This document shows positions 1,019 to 36,334 of a stretch of DNA of 64,000 bases, one piece after another. The notes below the pieces were generated by a model that worked only from the letters and a program-made list of their open reading frames with translations, did no database searches and was not told the DNA's origin. Position 1 is the first letter of the stretch, and the number at the start of each line of letters is the position of its first letter. Both the position numbers and the translations under genes were made by a program. Location of the stretch: NCBI GenBank assembly GCA_021463645.1, contig JAJTYI010000006.1, positions 117,692 to 181,691 on the forward strand. Direction: 5' to 3'. Source of the DNA: a bacterium (GTDB lineage Bacteria; Patescibacteriota; Dojkabacteria; B142; OLB20).

Positions 1019-1040
1019 TTAAGAAGAGTTAATATAATAC

Positions 1041-1197
1041 ACTCAGCTCCGCGGAGAGGACTCCTAAACCAGCAGTTAGTGAGCTATAAGTAACTATTAA
1101 GCTGGCCTGTCCTTGCGAAAGCAAGGATTAGTCCCCCGTAGCTTCAGCGGAGGGGGAGAACCTATCCATATGATGTTGAATAATACTATGTTTATAT
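1041..1197 (-). repeat. tRNA-Asn-linked structured unit ending in a 23-nt copy of the tRNA 3' end plus trailer
   Basis: The 23-mer ACTCAGCTCCGCGGAGAGGACTC (plus strand) occurs at 1198-1220, where it overlaps the tRNA-Asn 3' end, and again at 1041-1063. Between the copies lie three hairpins: TCCTTGC-GAAA-GCAAGGA (1110-1127), TCCCCC...GGGGGA, and CCAGC...GCTGG enclosing AGTTA...TAACT. No ORF. Confidence 0.7.
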
Positions 1198-1203
1198 ACT
1201 CAG

Positions 1204-1275
1204 CTCCGCGGAGAGGACTCGAACCTCTAACCATTCGGTTAACAGCCGATCGCTCCACCATTGAGCTACCGCGGA
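1204..1275 (-). tRNA. tRNA-Asn (anticodon GTT)
   Basis: Hand-folded cloverleaf. Acceptor TCCGCGG/CCGCGGA; D arm GCTC-AATGGTG-GAGC; anticodon loop CTGTTAA; T arm AGAGG-TTCGAGT-CCTCT; discriminator G. 72 nt, CCA not encoded. Confidence 0.9.
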
Positions 1276-1499
1276 ACCGAGAATATTAATATAGTTATTT
1301 ATAAAGAACTGTAATTGATGATTTTACCACTACTCTACATATTTGATAATTAAATCGAAAATTATTATTCGAATAATTGTCAAAACCTCCTAATTATAAC
1401 AACTAATTTACATATTATAAAAACTAATACCCCTAATAGTGAAAATTCATTATTCTCAAATTAAGTTGTATAATTCCCTATATATATTAAAGCTAAATA

Positions 1500-9744: not shown

Positions 9745-10893
9745 ATGCTTGTTAAACCTCAATCAACCAGTTTTGCGAAAATAAAAGTAGTAGGAGTTGG
9801 TGGTGCTGGCGGAAACGCCATTAACAATATGATCAAAAATCACGAAATTGAAGGAGTTGAATTCATTGCTGTAAATACAGACGCACAGGTACTCGCAAGC
9901 AACAGCGCAGAGATTAAATTGCGAATCGGAGAAGAGATTACAAGAGGCTTAGGAAGTGGAGGAAACCCTCAAATTGGGAGAAAAGCTGCTGAAGAGTCAG
10001 TCGATTTACTACACGAACATTTAGCTGGTGCTGATATGGTTTTCATTACTGCTGGTATGGGTGGTGGAACCGGAACTGGTGCCTCTCCTGTTATCGCTGG
10101 AATCGCAAAAAATCTAGGTGCGCTAACAATTGGAATCGTAGAGAAACCCTTCAATTTTGAAGGTCGCAGAAGGATGGAGACCGCAATCCAAGGTATTGCA
10201 GAAATCAAAGACAAAGTCGACACACTAATCGTCGTTCCCAATCAAAGATTGCTCGATGTTATAGAGAGAAATATCTCATTCATGGAAGCAATGAAAAAAG
10301 TAGATGACGTTCTTGCAATGGCAGTCAAAAGCATCTCCGAGCTTATCACACAAGGTGGAATGATCAATGTAGACTTTGCGGATATTAAATCAATTATGTT
10401 AAATGCAGGCACAGCATTGATGGGAATGGGTGTTGCTAGTGGTGAGGATAGAGCCAAAGAAGCCGCTAAAATGGCCATGGAGAGCCCCCTACTCGAAGCT
10501 TCGATAGAAGGTGCCACTGGAGTACTCTTTAACATTTTCGGAGGCGATGACCTAGCAATGTACGAGATTGATGAAATTGCGAGAACTATCTCAGAAGTGG
10601 TTCACCCAGATGCAAACATCTTCTTTGGGGCAAATGTTGATCCGTCTATGGACGAACAGTTACAAGTGACTGTCTTGGCTACTGGATTTGATACCAACAA
10701 TCAAGGTATTCCTGTACCCGCCGCACAACCCAAACCAGTCCAGGAAACTCCACGTAGTCCAGTTAATCCTATTAGAACACAACCTACAAAACCATCTAAA
10801 CCAATTTTTGGTGACGATGACGATGATGATGACTACGATATGGATAGTTTAGAGTCAACTCCTTCATATATGAGGAGGAAGAAAGAGTATTAA
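9745..10893 (+). CDS. ftsZ: cell division GTPase FtsZ
   Basis: VGVGGAGGNAINNM and the tubulin signature GGGTGTGASPVIA. The ATG at 9745 (MLVKPQS...) is preferred over the track's TTG at 9700. Confidence 0.95.
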   Translation: MLVKPQSTSFAKIKVVGVGGAGGNAINNMIKNHEIEGVEFIAVNTDAQVLASNSAEIKLRIGEEITRGLGSGGNPQIGRKAAEESVDLLHEHLAGADMVFITAGMGGGTGTGASPVIAGIAKNLGALTIGIVEKPFNFEGRRRMETAIQGIAEIKDKVDTLIVVPNQRLLDVIERNISFMEAMKKVDDVLAMAVKSISELITQGGMINVDFADIKSIMLNAGTALMGMGVASGEDRAKEAAKMAMESPLLEASIEGATGVLFNIFGGDDLAMYEIDEIARTISEVVHPDANIFFGANVDPSMDEQLQVTVLATGFDTNNQGIPVPAAQPKPVQETPRSPVNPIRTQPTKPSKPIFGDDDDDDDYDMDSLESTPSYMRRKKEY

Positions 10894-25452: not shown

Positions 25453-25522
25453 ATATTCTCTTTCCTCTAATATTTTCTCCTATAATTCATTCTAGAGTAT
25501 AATACTGTTGCAAATTATTCTC

Positions 25523-25596
25523 GCACCAATAGCTCAGATGGATAGAGCGCCACTTTGCGGAAGTGGAGGTCGCAGGTTCGAATCCTGCTTGGTGCA
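25523..25596 (+). tRNA. tRNA-Arg (anticodon GCG)
   Basis: Hand-folded. Acceptor GCACCAA/TTGGTGC; D arm GCTC-AGATGGATA-GAGC; anticodon stem CCACT/AGTGG with loop TTGCGGA; T arm GCAGG-TTCGAAT-CCTGC; discriminator A. CCA not encoded. Confidence 0.9.
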
Positions 25597-25846
25597 ATTA
25601 ATTGAATACGCTGTTTTCACCACACAAGCATTATCTTCAGGTTAGACCCTTGCTTTCGCAAGGGTAACTCATCCCTACACCTCATGCTTCAGTAAGGGCT
25701 GAGTTAATCCTGCTTGGTGCAATTATTGGAATACGTTTTCACCACACAGCCATAATCTAAAGGTTAGACCCTTGCTTTCGCAAGGGTAACTCATCTCTAT
25801 ACCTCATGCTTCGGTAAGGGCTGAGTTAATCCTGCTTGGTGCAATT
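25597..25846 (+). repeat. two tandem tRNA-Arg-linked structured units (125- and 122-nt period), each ending in a copy of the tRNA 3' end
   Basis: AATCCTGCTTGGTGCAATTA occurs at 25581-25600 (tRNA 3' end plus trailer), at 25706-25725, and as a 19/20 match at 25828-25846. The invariant hairpin ACCCTTGC-TTTC-GCAAGGGT occurs at 25646-25665 and 25768-25787. No ORF. Confidence 0.8.
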
Positions 25847-25914
25847 TCTATATAACTCAAATCCTTAACTCATGTCATTTAACCCCTCAGCAATTCTAAT
25901 GCTATAATCAATTT

Positions 25915-27204: not shown

Positions 27205-27239
27205 TTATCCACAAATAAGCTATTCTATTTTTATCCACA
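27205..27239 (+). promoter_or_regulatory. two perfect DnaA boxes upstream of dnaA
   Basis: TTATCCACA at 27205-27213 and 27231-27239, in the same orientation, within the yidD-dnaA intergenic region. Confidence 0.75.
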
Positions 27240-28710: not shown

Positions 28711-28919
28711 TTTTCTACACAAATTTGTCCACTTTTGGGTAATACCGAAAAAGAATAAGACACATAGATAATCAGAAATATGAAAAAAACTTATCCATAA
28801 ATTATACACATCAGTTTTTTTCTATAAGAGTTCTCTGTACAATCAAATTGAAATAAATATACACTTATACACGTACACTAATATAACTACTACTATTTTT
28901 AATTAATATATATATAGTA
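28711..28919. other. candidate oriC segment (degenerate DnaA boxes plus an AT-rich unwinding region)
   Basis: TTATCCATA at 28791-28799, TTATACACA at 28802-28810, and TTATACACG at 28865-28873. Nearly pure A/T from 28897 to 28919 (aattaatatatatatagtaa). Located in the dnaA-dnaN spacer. Confidence 0.55.
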
Positions 28920-30050
28920 ATGAAAATCTCTTTAATACAAGAAAATCTTGCAAAAGCTTTACTGTACATAAATAAGGCAGTTAGCTCTCGACCGAACATT
29001 CCAATTTTAGCGAACGTATTGCTGGAAACCGAGAAGGGAAAGCTAAAGCTGTCGGCTACGAATCTGGATATCGGAATAAGTACCTGGATTGGTGCTACTG
29101 TAGCGGAAGAAGGAAAGATTACGGTTTCAGCAAAAATGCTCTCAGACTTCGTGAACTCCTTGAAGTCAGGGAAGATTGAACTACTTCAACAAGGACAAAC
29201 CCTTGTGGTTAAGTCTGTGGATAACATCGCTGAGTTTTATATAATTCCTGCAGAAGACTTTCCAAGGGTACCACAAGTGGAAGGTAATCCATTACTGGAG
29301 ATTGATTCTACGACATTGTCTGAAACTTTTACTAAAACAGCTTTTGCAGCAAGCAATGATGAGTCTAGGCCAGTATTAACAGGCTTATTGTTCAAAGGTA
29401 GTAAAAAAAGACTGACAATAGTTGGAGTAGATGGATTTCGATTATCAAAAAAAGAGATTATGCTGGAAGAAGATTTGGGTAGTAAAGAGTTTGAGGAAAT
29501 CGTTCCAGCTCGTGCCGTTTCAGAAGTAGAAAGTCTGATCAAAGACATGACAGGAAAAAACGACAAGGTTCAAGTTTATCTACTTGGAAATAAAAACCAA
29601 ATGTTGTTCAAAATAGGAGATGTGGAGTTAAGCACAAGACTTATAGAAGGAAAGTTCCCAGAATATGACAATATTTTGCCAAAAGATTATAAATTTGAAT
29701 GTAAAGTGGAAAAAGCAGGACTTAACGATATGTTAAAAGTTGTTAGTATCTTTGCTAGAAATGTAGTGGGAAATAAAACAAAGTTTAAAATTGATGGCTC
29801 AGAATCAAAACTCAAACTTTCCACATCTGTTGTAGATATCGGAAACAACGAAAGCGAAATTACAGTAAAAGAGCTTGATGGTGAAGACTTTGAGACTGCC
29901 TTTAATGTCAAATTCCTTCAAGACATGGTCAATATCATGACAAGTGAAATTATCACATTCCAGACAAACGGGCCAACAGCTCCCGGAGTTTTCCTCGATC
30001 CCAAAGACAAAAACTTCATACATGTAGTTATGCCAATGAGGGTTGAGTAG
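28920..30050 (+). CDS. dnaN: DNA polymerase III beta sliding clamp
   Basis: 376 aa. The N-terminus ...AVSSRPNIPILANVLLE... and three-domain length fit a beta clamp. Synteny after dnaA. Confidence 0.9.
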   Translation: MKISLIQENLAKALLYINKAVSSRPNIPILANVLLETEKGKLKLSATNLDIGISTWIGATVAEEGKITVSAKMLSDFVNSLKSGKIELLQQGQTLVVKSVDNIAEFYIIPAEDFPRVPQVEGNPLLEIDSTTLSETFTKTAFAASNDESRPVLTGLLFKGSKKRLTIVGVDGFRLSKKEIMLEEDLGSKEFEEIVPARAVSEVESLIKDMTGKNDKVQVYLLGNKNQMLFKIGDVELSTRLIEGKFPEYDNILPKDYKFECKVEKAGLNDMLKVVSIFARNVVGNKTKFKIDGSESKLKLSTSVVDIGNNESEITVKELDGEDFETAFNVKFLQDMVNIMTSEIITFQTNGPTAPGVFLDPKDKNFIHVVMPMRVE

Positions 30051-30129
30051 GAGACTAAAATTCTTCTCTTTAATCAAGTATAAATGTGCTAATAACTTTG
30101 ATATTATTAAGAATAGTTATTATTATTCA

Positions 30130-31458
30130 ATGAAAAGTTATAAAACTGTACTATTCTTAGTTTCCCCCTTAATTTTTATAATTTGTGTCTTTGTTTTGTA
30201 TACAATATATAAATTTCCCTCCATATCTACAGGTCCCACAGAATTAATATCCACAACCCCAACACCTCAAAATAGTAACTTGATTACACCTAGACTCGTA
30301 AACGAGCCATATGATGGAAATCTCCAATATACTGTTTTAACTTCAGAGGATAAAGTAATAACTAAAGATCATAATGGAAAGATCTTGAAAGAATTTCAAT
30401 TGAAACTAGCTTGTAATAATGGCGAAAAGGCTTTTGATTTCGAAATACTGAAATACGAACAAAACGTAACTTTTTATACTGTTTGTTCAGAAGGTATTAG
30501 ATTAATTGAAAATAATGAATTAAAAAGACTTATCGAATATAAAGAAATTGGGATAAATGAAAAAATAAATTACGAAGAATATACCTTTCATATAAAGTTC
30601 TCAGAAGGATTGGAGTATATGTTCTATTCTATAAATGCAGATAATACAGGAACAAGCAATACTGTAGGGTATAAAAACGGATTACTAAACCTAGAAACAA
30701 ATAAAGTAATCTTGATTTCTCCTGATAGAACAGATTTTACAAGGGACGGGTTGGGTATAGTGGATTATTTTAGTAATAATAAAATAATAATTTTTTATCA
30801 AAAAAGCCCGTCAGGTGCTATTGCAGAGGGTTTGTACGAATATGATACAGAGAAACAGTCCTATGAGAGCTTTCTTAACTATGGGGTTTCCCCAAGTGAT
30901 GTAATACAGGGTAGAAAAAGATTGGATAACAAACTAGTCTTCCATAATGCATACAAACCATTTTCTGATAAATTATATGAGGATAAAGCATATTTAGTTG
31001 AAATTGATTTTGGGGAATATCTTTCTGAGCAAGAATATGAACTACCTACTAGGTTCTATTTTCTTTCTGTTGCAGATATGGCAAATGGTTTGCAACAAGT
31101 TAGTGAAGATGGAAAGATTTCAATTCTTAAGACCACTTCACACGAATGGGAAGGAAATTACGAAACAATTCCTACTAGTGCATATGTCGATAGTAAAATC
31201 GTCGTTTCTACTGAGGGTAAAATATTAAAAGAATATTTCGTAGATCCCCGAAAAATCTATATATACAAGTTTGTCGATTATGAAAAAATCGTATTTGCAG
31301 AATTGAATATAGAAAATCGGGCTAGTGAAGACGGTGTTGGGTGGTATAGCGAATATGTATATGACTCATTACATTTACTTGATATGAAAGAAGATGAATT
31401 GTTAAAAGTATCTGATTTAGGAGAAGACACTGTATCAGTGCTAGGGGTAAGGTTTTAG
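30130..31458 (+). CDS. hypothetical N-terminally anchored extracytoplasmic protein
   Basis: The ATG at 30130 gives MKSYKTVLFLVSPLIFIICVFVLYTIY (signal-anchor). The remainder is hydrophilic and beta-rich in appearance. No family recognised. Confidence 0.5.
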   Translation: MKSYKTVLFLVSPLIFIICVFVLYTIYKFPSISTGPTELISTTPTPQNSNLITPRLVNEPYDGNLQYTVLTSEDKVITKDHNGKILKEFQLKLACNNGEKAFDFEILKYEQNVTFYTVCSEGIRLIENNELKRLIEYKEIGINEKINYEEYTFHIKFSEGLEYMFYSINADNTGTSNTVGYKNGLLNLETNKVILISPDRTDFTRDGLGIVDYFSNNKIIIFYQKSPSGAIAEGLYEYDTEKQSYESFLNYGVSPSDVIQGRKRLDNKLVFHNAYKPFSDKLYEDKAYLVEIDFGEYLSEQEYELPTRFYFLSVADMANGLQQVSEDGKISILKTTSHEWEGNYETIPTSAYVDSKIVVSTEGKILKEYFVDPRKIYIYKFVDYEKIVFAELNIENRASEDGVGWYSEYVYDSLHLLDMKEDELLKVSDLGEDTVSVLGVRF

Positions 31459-31482
31459 GAGATAAGGGTTGTGACTGTAAGG

Positions 31483-31503
31483 TTTAAAGAATTTAACGAA
31501 TCA
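31483..31503. repeat. 21-bp direct repeat, left copy (duplicate of femX codons 3-9)
   Basis: TTTAAAGAATTTAACGAATCA is identical to 32493-32513. Confidence 0.9.
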
Positions 31504-31534
31504 ATTTATAATCTAATATATTATTAACATTTCA

Positions 31535-32395
31535 TTGACTAATTCTCTAAATAATCAGGAAGTAAGAAAACCGAAGTCTAAACAATTAATACTCGTTATT
31601 GTTTTTGCAACTCTTTTCATTTGTTTCCTTAGTTTATTGGTAGTGTATTATTTTCTGGCTAGAAACATATCTCTTCCTACTACTGTTGAAACTGAATACG
31701 CCAATCCTACAATAGAGGATTCCTCAGAATGGCTAGAATACAGAAACACAAAATATGGTTTTACAATGGTGTATCCAGATATCGGACTAACTCCGAGAGA
31801 GGTAGAAGTGTTCGAGAAAAGAAAAGCAGACTATATCTATTGTGACATAGGTATCTCCGCCTGCCCTAGTTTTATAGAAGGAAAATATAAAATTGGTTTC
31901 TTCGATAAAAATTCTCAGGAAGCAGTTAGTGTGGAAATTTACGATAGAGAAATGGCCTCTGATGAGTTGGGTGGTAAACTTTCCGGAGGATTTACTTATT
32001 TGGTTTATCGACCTACTTACCATGACGAGGATGAGGGATGGGTTAATCACATTATTAGTTTAGAGGATAGGAATAAAATAGAAGAATCAATAACATTTAT
32101 TGAAACGGAGAAACCAAAATCCTGTTTGTGGGAAAACTCTTATTACAGTTACACAAAAGAAGAAGCTGATTTATTAAAAAATGATGTCTACTCTTACATT
32201 AAACTTAGAAATGGAGATACCTCAATATACGGCGCAGAAAATAAGAAGGAAGAATATTTGAGATATTCTGGGTGGCGGTATAATTGGGGCGGAGATTGTG
32301 AAGAAATTGAGTACTATACATGGAGTGAAGACTCTTCAGCACCTCCCTTTAGAAGTCGAGAGGAATGTGTACAAACATGTATGACACCTGACTAA
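31535..32395 (+). CDS. hypothetical N-terminally anchored protein with a 4-Cys C-terminal region
   Basis: 286 aa from a TTG start; no ATG lies upstream of the TM (LILVIVFATLFICFLSLLVVYYFLA). The C-terminus reads ...GGDCEEIEYYTWSEDSSAPPFRSREECVQTCMTPD. Confidence 0.5.
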   Translation: MTNSLNNQEVRKPKSKQLILVIVFATLFICFLSLLVVYYFLARNISLPTTVETEYANPTIEDSSEWLEYRNTKYGFTMVYPDIGLTPREVEVFEKRKADYIYCDIGISACPSFIEGKYKIGFFDKNSQEAVSVEIYDREMASDELGGKLSGGFTYLVYRPTYHDEDEGWVNHIISLEDRNKIEESITFIETEKPKSCLWENSYYSYTKEEADLLKNDVYSYIKLRNGDTSIYGAENKKEEYLRYSGWRYNWGGDCEEIEYYTWSEDSSAPPFRSREECVQTCMTPD

Positions 32396-35839: not shown

Positions 35840-36283
35840 TTAGAATGGCTTTTTATATGATGAAAAAGAATCTCTGGGTAACTCGGTGTTGGAATCTGTG
35901 CACTTTTCAATAAAAAATGAGTGATCTATATTATTCATATCATCCGGAGAATAGGATTTTGTATACAAATCTTCACATTTCAGACACATTTCCATATCAA
36001 CAGGTATTGGAGAAGGATGCGATTTCATATTATGAGAAAACATATCGACATAATTTTCAACACAGGATTGTCCATGATTCCATATGTACCCATAATTTTG
36101 TCCAATACATGATAGACAACCAAGACTGTGTGGAGCAGAGAGACAGACTTGATATATACCCGGTGATACACGAGTTGTATGGCATGGATCAAACAACCAG
36201 TAAAGGAACAGAATAATACAGATGAAAGGGAGACCTAAAAACATAAAAACTAGTATGATTCGATTTCTGGATAATTTTTTCAT
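35840..36283 (-). CDS. hypothetical single-pass membrane protein with a juxtamembrane Cys-rich module (short paralogue)
   Basis: TM IILVFMFLGLPFICIILFLYWLF, followed by YQVCLSAPHSLGCLSCIGQ...CLKCEDL...FFIEKCTDS. Confidence 0.5.
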   Translation of the reverse strand: MKKLSRNRIILVFMFLGLPFICIILFLYWLFDPCHTTRVSPGIYQVCLSAPHSLGCLSCIGQNYGYIWNHGQSCVENYVDMFSHNMKSHPSPIPVDMEMCLKCEDLYTKSYSPDDMNNIDHSFFIEKCTDSNTELPRDSFSSYKKPF

Positions 36284-36334
36284 TCTAGAGTAATAATATT
36301 TTTAATATTACTCCAGTTTGTCGGGGATTTGTAG

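Follow-up and report, generated by a model that had tools for sequence, protein, structure and literature searches.

The 2002 classification by Williams reportedly covers islands and prophages whose tyrosine integrases target the T-loop sublocation within tRNA genes. The closest described category for the DNA considered here is that of the cis-mobilizable elements (CIMEs), which are decayed integrative elements that keep attL and attR, have lost the integrase and transfer genes and often stand in tandem at tRNA 3' ends (PMC5704250). The nearest precedent for a mechanism that would duplicate the target is casposon insertion, with its fixed 15-bp duplication that overlaps the tRNA 3' end by only 5 bp, the T-psi-C segment in the role of 'leader', and terminal inverted repeats (TIRs) at the element ends (PMC5137440). 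Here we analyse a stretch of 64,000 nucleotides (hereafter the window) from a Dojkabacteria genome (contig JAJTYI010000006.1, positions 117,692 to 181,691), in which hairpin-rich units of 105-160 nt, free of open reading frames (ORFs), lie behind tRNA-Arg and tRNA-Asn and are oriented like the tRNA; every unit terminates in a duplicate of its own tRNA's 3' end.

We tentatively favour the view, to which we would give slightly less than an even chance, that these units are a miniature element, non-autonomous and restricted to one clade, which either inserts at the segment of tRNA genes from the T-loop to the 3' end or duplicates that segment. Repeats that start in the T-loop at two tRNAs, an empty site, tandem accretion, distal decay and clade restriction point to selfish DNA that targets tRNA 3' ends; considered along with copy-number variation, strict tRNA linkage and the full-length homology between the Arg and Asn units, they make a miniature tRNA-targeting element the best supported of the three hypotheses offered in a preliminary description of this DNA, the others being a structured RNA and a palindrome of the repetitive extragenic palindromic (REP) type combined with slippage. 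The mobility of the units, the enzyme concerned and the direction of events are what we infer from these patterns.

The units and their terminal repeats

The Arg array is anchored by tRNA-Arg(GCG) (25523-25596, + strand; ARAGORN and Rfam tRNA, 70.6 bits), which has no encoded CCA. The direct repeat AATCCTGCTTGGTGCAATT covers T-loop position 58, the 3' T-stem, the acceptor strand, the discriminator and three trailer bases; it lies at 25581-25599, recurs exactly at 25706-25724 and again, over the same 19 nt, at 25828-25846 (all + strand), and closes each Arg unit exactly. Between the copies stand two bodies of what we call type B, both on the + strand. The first (25600-25705) consists of an AT-rich leader, the hairpin ACCCTTGC-TTTC-GCAAGGGT (25646-25665) and a long hairpin, H3 (25666-25705), and the second (25725-25827) has the corresponding hairpins at 25768-25787 and, for H3, at 25788-25827. 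Counted with the terminal tRNA copy, the units extend over 25597-25721 and 25722-25843, where a covariance model (R1) gives 134.7 and 143.3 bits, respectively, terminal copies included. The repetition had been recognized in the preliminary description, and its particulars hold: the 20-mer AATCCTGCTTGGTGCAATTA is present at 25581-25600 and 25706-25725 and, with one mismatch, at 25828-25847 (chance expectation, 0.00 matches), and the two units, said to be about 88% identical, are identical at 89.6% of positions overall and at 88.1% once the last 16 nt are removed (10 substitutions, 3 gap positions).

The second locus lies on the - strand, behind tRNA-Asn(GTT) (1203/1204-1275; ARAGORN and Rfam), likewise without an encoded CCA. 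Here the direct repeat, GAGTCCTCTCCGCGGAGCTGAGT, comprises the tRNA 3' end and trailer (23 nt exact, or 27 nt at 96%), with one copy in and just past the tRNA (1198-1220) and its terminal partner at 1041-1063. The body between them (1064-1197) is made up of a leader, an AGGTTC box, hairpin H1 (1132-1157), a 16-nt hairpin (1111-1126), H3 (1067-1107) and a GCTGGTT end. At both tRNAs the repeats begin at T-loop nt 57/58, and each matches its own tRNA, which bears out the proposal of a shared body with a locus-specific terminal repeat. As the repeats are devoid of CCA and include trailer bases, they were copied at the level of DNA or of the precursor rather than from mature tRNA.

The Asn unit is homologous over its full length to the type A unit found at the Arg locus of sister species (nhmmer E = 2e-5, 60.9% identity), with just 51-61% identity to every known Arg unit. 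Its 3' end is GCTGGTT, as in the Arg units, despite the AGAGG of the Asn T-stem. This end is close to the T-stem and loop of tRNA-Arg (GCAGGTT), unlike those of tRNA-Asn (AGAGGTT), a likeness which suggests that the family arose at tRNA-Arg. The full-length homology together with GCTGGTT at the Asn locus indicates that one family has colonised at least two tRNA genes. The blocks that the units have in common are TAGGTTCTCCC, just ahead of the first hairpin, and GCTGGTT, just ahead of the tRNA copy; the AGGTTC box is kept in the A, A' (a shorter form of A) and Asn units.

The 16-nt hairpin sequence CCTTGCTTTCGCAAGG, as had been reported, is common to the Arg units and the Asn unit, with exactly three copies in 64 kb (25648, 25770 and, on the - strand, 1111), one per unit, where 0.03 would be expected. 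The key role assigned to it did not survive comparison. Units of types A and A', which sister species have at the same locus, carry different hairpins at its position, and by itself the 16-mer matches dozens of unrelated sequences, among them 50 in IMG/VR (terminators, coding regions). Combined with a 3' motif, it produced one chance match in GTDB genomes; the contig L070 was the sole true relative in the metagenome scan. What the family shares is instead the AGGTTC box, the GCTGGTT 3' end and the tRNA copy. Unrelated metagenome contigs also contain the 16-mer (L071 near position 397, L072 near 1425 and 3558, L075 near 772); there it sits, by reading, in another repeated hairpin-rich element (GGAGTCCTTCCGAAAGGAAGG...), just upstream of the apparent start of a small ORF.

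The linkage to tRNA genes is strict in the DNA searched. When all units were compared by nhmmer with about 250 kb of DNA from the group, matches fell solely in intervals downstream of tRNA genes, and the covariance model, applied with filters off to the whole window, picked up the Asn unit, both Arg units and, via its 3' end, the tRNA itself, and nothing else. Units that occur only behind tRNA genes do not agree with a generic intergenic palindrome.

The tandem Arg units and the Asn unit are real and no artefact of assembly, given that the arrays are reproduced in independent assemblies. The Asn locus is repeated base for base in four independent Logan contigs, and the Arg locus of L070, an ENA contig from activated sludge, reads unit end, repeat, unit, repeat, flank. 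Furthermore, three Logan contigs begin exactly at the 30-mer common to both Arg unit ends; provided that the Logan assembly used k=31, which is our assumption, such a start is the point at which the graph would branch if the 'next unit' and the 'flank' continuations both exist. Arrays of this kind break short-read assemblies at tRNA-Arg.

Variation among relatives and the origin of the units

The Arg locus was compared among relatives in stretches of 20 kb, each with one tRNA. In strain L001, which belongs to the same species (95.8-98.8% nucleotide identity), there is an exact empty site: the flank that follows the third repeat in the window stands directly behind the tRNA. Relatives with a RodZ-like protein 90% identical to that of the window (L063-L068) have a type A unit of 162 nt that contains three hairpin modules and closes with an exact repeat; behind it stands a type B unit that is cut short inside its hairpin and has no closing repeat. 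In L069 (RodZ 88% identical) an A' unit precedes a type B unit, and point mutations affect both downstream repeats and the type B hairpin. The contig of L077 (82%) begins inside the end of an A-type unit, and L078/L079 (77%) have two A' units, 98.5% identical to each other, and then a third, truncated A' unit, with an assembly gap within the array of L078. Units are absent from L085/L086 (60%), where the tRNA is followed immediately by promoter-like sequence (by reading) and a DUF308 gene. Unit 2 of the window is 90.2% identical to the second unit of L069, the one farther from the tRNA, and 96.7% identical to the one complete unit of L070. In the type A unit of L063 (about 9795-9825) there are two tandem 15-nt hairpins, TCAGCCaaaGGCTGA and TCAGCCactGGCTGA, absent from A' units, so that hairpin modules have evidently been gained or lost within units.

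Taken together, these comparisons show that the family is confined to one subclade of Candidatus Dojkabacteria and that, within this subclade, the Arg array is old, variable in copy number (1, 2 or 2+ units in related species) and in structural type, of which there are three, and decaying at the end distal to the tRNA. The array can apparently be dispensed with without harm, as judged from the empty site in L001 and the lack of units in L085/L086.

Could such a history be entirely passive? The missing closing repeat in the terminal units of L063 and L079 is what tandem duplication predicts, and a duplication of the T-loop-to-trailer segment of tRNA-Arg, with subsequent unequal crossing-over and a rare template switch or recombination to tRNA-Asn seeded by GGTTCGA, is an explanation that we consider unlikely, if far from negligible. 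Under this scenario the resemblance of the unit end GCTGGTT to the Arg GCAGGTT, and its retention at the Asn locus, would be expected, and GGTT homology would explain why the repeats start in the T-loop. What a passive origin does not readily explain is that the T-loop boundary agrees within 1 nt at two tRNAs, that both tRNAs of the window bear units and that tRNA-Asn is intact, whereas an exchange seeded by T-loop homology should leave a chimeric tRNA.

The tRNA-Asn locus bears on this question from both directions. It is identical to that of the window in L080, a strain at 95% identity. In the sister species L081-83 (L081, 9638-10000), the corresponding intergenic region has tRNA-Asn on its + strand, opposite to the window; the flanking DNA differs and a unit is absent. 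In another relative, L087/88 (L087, 1-443), tRNA-Asn is absent from that place, which is occupied by a small ORF with weak, sub-threshold helix-hairpin-helix matches. The tRNA-Asn intergenic region (window 1019-1499) is thus a rearrangement hotspot among close relatives, as would suit passive duplication. The DNA past the Asn terminal repeat resembles, in a comparison by eye, the native tRNA-Asn trailer of L081 (13 of 19 nt); should this likeness behind both repeat copies be real, the duplicated target reaches into the trailer, and such a run into native-looking trailer, along with repeat lengths that differ between the loci, is again compatible with a passive event. On the other hand, the locus looks recently remodelled, and yet its unit has the low identity to all known Arg units given above; the donor would then have been something other than the Arg array in residence, and more members of the family must exist elsewhere.

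Each unit consists of a leader of about 40-50 nt, the AGGTTC box, two or three type-specific hairpins and a GCTGGTT-like 3' end, and is bounded by a duplicate of the local tRNA from T-loop position 57/58 to the discriminator and a few trailer bases. Under the miniature-element interpretation, its placement at a tRNA 3' end would require or make a duplication of the T-loop-to-3' segment, either through a site-specific recombinase that acts in trans on the T-arm or through an insertion that duplicates its target or a template switch during replication that relies on the GGTT homology between the unit 3' end and the T-arm. Once two repeats are present, recombination between them might add or remove units, or delete the whole array and leave a precise empty site, and units distant from the tRNA would decay. 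To this extent the earlier suggestion of a REP-like palindrome with slippage contains a valid component: the 16-mer is no dispersed palindrome of that kind, but it is probably through recombination between repeats that copies are gained and lost. Where a single unit is present, at the Asn locus, the predicted excision junction would read GCTGGTTTAG-GAGTCC...CTGAGT-ATATAAAC, a sequence that cannot come from a tandem array.

Several considerations weigh against this interpretation. The evidence comes from two tRNA loci only, and neither an excised form nor a demonstrably recent transposition is known; most paralogous units are about 10% diverged, near the divergence between species, so most of them must be old. 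A double-stranded circle of 105-160 bp is sterically unfavourable. An element with its own attP core would, on moving to a new tRNA, give a chimeric tRNA, which makes the locus-specific repeat hard to explain, whereas duplication of the target explains it naturally. Repeats of different lengths (19-20 nt at Arg, 23-27 nt or more at Asn) argue against an enzyme that measures a fixed distance. As to the enzyme, the window has 54 ORFs of at least 90 aa, of which roughly 32 were scanned; no recombinase-related Pfam domain was detected in these (11 of them matched no Pfam family whatever), as a passive origin would have it, and none is present in the precomputed Pfam annotations of the relatives' loci. 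Finally, GTDB species genomes, JGI metagenomes and IMG/VR yielded no further members in scans that required the exact 16-mer or type A motifs and were accordingly insensitive.

If the units do move, they would be among the smallest site-specific elements and a rare family of mobile DNA in the highly reduced genomes of the candidate phyla radiation (CPR), and the way in which a cargo-less element of about 120 nt gains the correct tRNA 3' end at each target could point to a new recombinase specificity or to a mechanism that duplicates the target. If they are the product of mere passive duplication, they are an ordinary curiosity of local genome instability.

Folding of the units

All unit types fold as junctions of several hairpins, and do so better than shuffled sequences (z from -2.0 to -3.6; -3.4 for the RNA fold of Arg unit 1). 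In an alignment of seven Arg units, 95.5% of the cells in two hairpins are paired, compared with 28-53% in slid controls, and 7 of the 19 pairs have changed on both sides. The 'second small hairpin' of the preliminary description, with its TTCA or TTCG loop, is present and turns out to be only the top of a longer hairpin with a conserved 9-nt apical loop, UCAUNCUUC. Several of the folds pair the AGGUUC box with GA(A/G)UCCU, the start of the tRNA copy, in a helix that resembles a T-stem and closes the junction. The pattern suggests that the hairpins are maintained through compensatory changes, with the qualification that the covariation comes from roughly two independent lineages and that template switching at quasi-palindromes can mimic it. 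Indeed, a passive origin would see in these hairpins quasi-palindromes kept perfect by template-switch mutation and not by selection; the hairpin CTTCT-TTC-AGAAG of L079, a perfect palindrome that replaces unrelated sequence, is compatible with such a process.

An alternative in which selection acts on the fold is that the units are a functional structured RNA, a long 3' trailer co-transcribed with the tRNA, in which the AGGUUC/GA(A/G)UCCU helix and the tRNA-like 3' tail might act as a signal for processing, as a decoy or stabiliser, or as a terminator of a non-canonical kind. The folds, the compensatory changes in two hairpins, the conserved apical loop and the AGGTTC box shared by the A, A' and Asn units are all in line with this possibility. 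Neither promoters nor terminators were found in the units or intervals (0 terminator-like sites, that is, a GC-rich hairpin with a T tract, in either interval), so that read-through from the tRNA is likely, and G.U pairs lean slightly to the tRNA-sense strand, albeit with small counts (5 G.U cells against 2 A.C cells). We nevertheless consider a functional RNA improbable, and of the options still live the one least favoured, since the units can be dispensed with and decay: a strain of the same species and the relative at 60% RodZ identity lack them, several lineages have them in truncated or mutated form, their copy number is free to vary, and whole hairpins have been gained, lost or swapped between types. 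No Rfam relative came to light either: in the covariance search of Rfam 15 only the two tRNAs reach the gathering score, with nothing credible over the type B and Asn units (E<=10) or the A and A' units (E<=1), and ARAGORN reports no transfer-messenger RNA in the window.

Several more specific structural assignments failed. A hand check for the core of a hammerhead ribozyme was negative. A closing 'acceptor stem', in which 5' CACCA in the Arg units or TCCGC in the Asn unit would pair with the tRNA 3' strand, is unconserved, L063 having CAC-ACA at the position of the Arg CACCA and the Arg type A hairpin loop having TTCGC at that of the Asn TCCGC. Nor is the unit a decayed tRNA: the 21.8 bits of a covariance alignment stem from the shared 3' end, the tRNA covariance model has no matches on the units, and local alignments of the unit body with the 5' two-thirds of the tRNA are no better than with shuffled sequences (p = 0.02-0.85 in 16 tests).

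Genomic neighbourhood, possible parents and known systems

The neighbours of the units are housekeeping genes, namely rpsL/rpsG, rpoBC, a RodZ-like HTH_25 gene, dnaA and dnaN, and the homologues of the HTH_25 protein are labelled Candidatus Dojkabacteria. The interval of the tRNA and its array ends at a promoter-like site of the HTH_25 gene (25879-25908, + strand; a 10/12 match with a TG extension). The cumulative GC skew is lowest at 24-28 kb, and there are two perfect DnaA boxes upstream of dnaA (27205-27239) and two near-perfect ones between dnaA and dnaN (28791-28810); a replication origin is likely to lie about 1.4 kb from the tRNA-Arg array. A role of the array in the origin itself was rejected, the units having no DnaA box and L001 having no array. 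Upstream of tRNA-Arg (25486-25520) there is a promoter-like motif, TTCATTCTAGAGTA(T)AATA, that recurs 10.8 kb away (36279-36313) and may be a shared promoter. The tRNA-Arg for CGN codons bears the anticodon GCG, here and in all relatives examined; the usual bacterial anticodon for this tRNA is ACG. Between dnaN and femAB (30043-32395) lie two ORFs of 471 and 286 aa with no Pfam match; the window and L001 have them, and L063 and L069, both sister species, lack them there, which indicates a species-specific insertion. In the more distant Dojkabacteria L085 (15482-17124), a restriction-modification pair, N6_N4_Mtase and RE_EcoO109I, occupies the space between femAB and degT.

A phage or plasmid parent that carries an attP was sought by blastn against phages and plasmids, which matched only tRNA T-arms, and four pattern scans of IMG/VR for the unit arms or a parent returned nothing save one 20-nt match in a phage ORF. 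This match, an identity to the tRNA-Arg 3' end plus TTTA at 604-623 of the contig L084, inside an ORF of 569 aa, is probably coincidental (rough chance expectation about 0.4). Searches of the literature brought up no account of units like these from Patescibacteria; what came nearest was an unrelated paper on group I introns in anticodon loops (PMC13011429).

These searches are relevant to the possibility that the units are the scars of kilobase-sized integrative elements or prophages, that is, their attL- and attR-proximal arms after internal deletion. Repeats that span the T-loop to the tRNA 3' end are what integration into tRNA genes classically leaves, and decayed elements are documented to accumulate in tandem at att sites (PMC5704250). 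However, the same layout of leader, hairpins and GCTGGTT, without any internal remnant, is seen again at two tRNAs and across at least five species, which argues against independent deletions, for their end points would differ; moreover, the unit arms are in no phage or plasmid record or IMG/VR contig searched. We regard scars of this kind as very improbable.

How, then, do the units relate to the systems with which we began? They resemble CIMEs in their direct repeats of the tRNA 3' end, their lack of recombination genes, their tandem arrangement and the empty sites in related strains: the attL- and attR-like repeats are intact, and there are no genes for integration or transfer. Unlike the units, CIMEs are of kilobase scale and derive from identifiable integrative and conjugative elements or integrative and mobilizable elements; at 105-160 nt, the units are 10-100 times smaller, with no recognisable parent in the phage, plasmid and IMG/VR searches, and related unit bodies stand at two tRNAs, each with its own repeat. 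With tyrosine-integrase islands they share an identity block that begins in the T-loop and extends to the tRNA 3' end, the way they are oriented with respect to the tRNA and, as L001 shows, a precise empty site. They differ from such islands in having neither an integrase of their own nor cargo, in being far below the size of a plausible double-stranded attP circle and in their attP-like unit junction, GCTGG-TTGAAGAAT-CCTGC, which mimics the T-arm only imperfectly. We agree, in this respect, with the preliminary description that the units, with no ORF or integrase within them and a body that recurs at two tRNAs, do not fit a classical island.

The other small repeated or structured elements are less similar. 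MITEs (miniature inverted-repeat transposable elements), REPs and bacterial interspersed mosaic elements (BIMEs) are, like the units, small, non-coding, hairpin-forming and repeated. MITEs have TIRs and a short (2-10 bp) target duplication, in contrast to the flanking repeat of 19-27 nt seen here, and visual inspection of the unit ends (ATTAATTG... / ...GCTGAGTT; ...GCTGGTTGAAG) revealed no inverted repeats. An assignment to REPs or BIMEs was rejected because the copies are not dispersed, the 16-mer being found three times in 64 kb, always behind a tRNA, with no other copies by nhmmer or the covariance model. Integron attC sites (5'-RYYYAAC...GTTRRRY-3') were set aside as well, the base of the unit hairpin being, by reading, of opposite polarity (5'-GGTTA...TAACT-3'). 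RNAs of the 3'ETS-leuZ type, from the 3' external transcribed spacer of tRNA transcripts, are reportedly released from the trailer of the tRNA precursor and are single-copy and conserved; the units would come off the same part of the precursor, yet those spacers, unlike the units, are not closed by a copied tRNA 3' end.

With casposon insertion and the acquisition of CRISPR spacers the units have in common the duplicated tRNA 3' target, the T-loop region at its border, the order leader-repeat-insert-repeat and the degenerate distal repeats, and a duplication of the casposon type, made from the target, would explain repeats that are specific to each locus. The differences are that the repeat of the units, at 19-27 nt, varies in length with the locus and lies almost wholly inside the tRNA, that TIRs are not visible and that no Cas1 was seen in the window. 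A distinctly unlikely extension of our interpretation would be that the units represent an undescribed class of miniature, protein-less mobile elements of the CPR, which home to the T-loop-to-3' segment of tRNA genes and make a locus-specific duplication of about 20-30 bp, by a route closer to casposon or CRISPR-spacer insertion, or to that of a folded single strand, than to attP x attB recombination, with the AGGTTC...GA(A/G)TCCT helix, a mimic of the T-arm, as the recognition structure. The units themselves are real, polymorphic and reproducible; most likely they are a miniature variant of the integrative or insertional DNA that targets tRNA genes.

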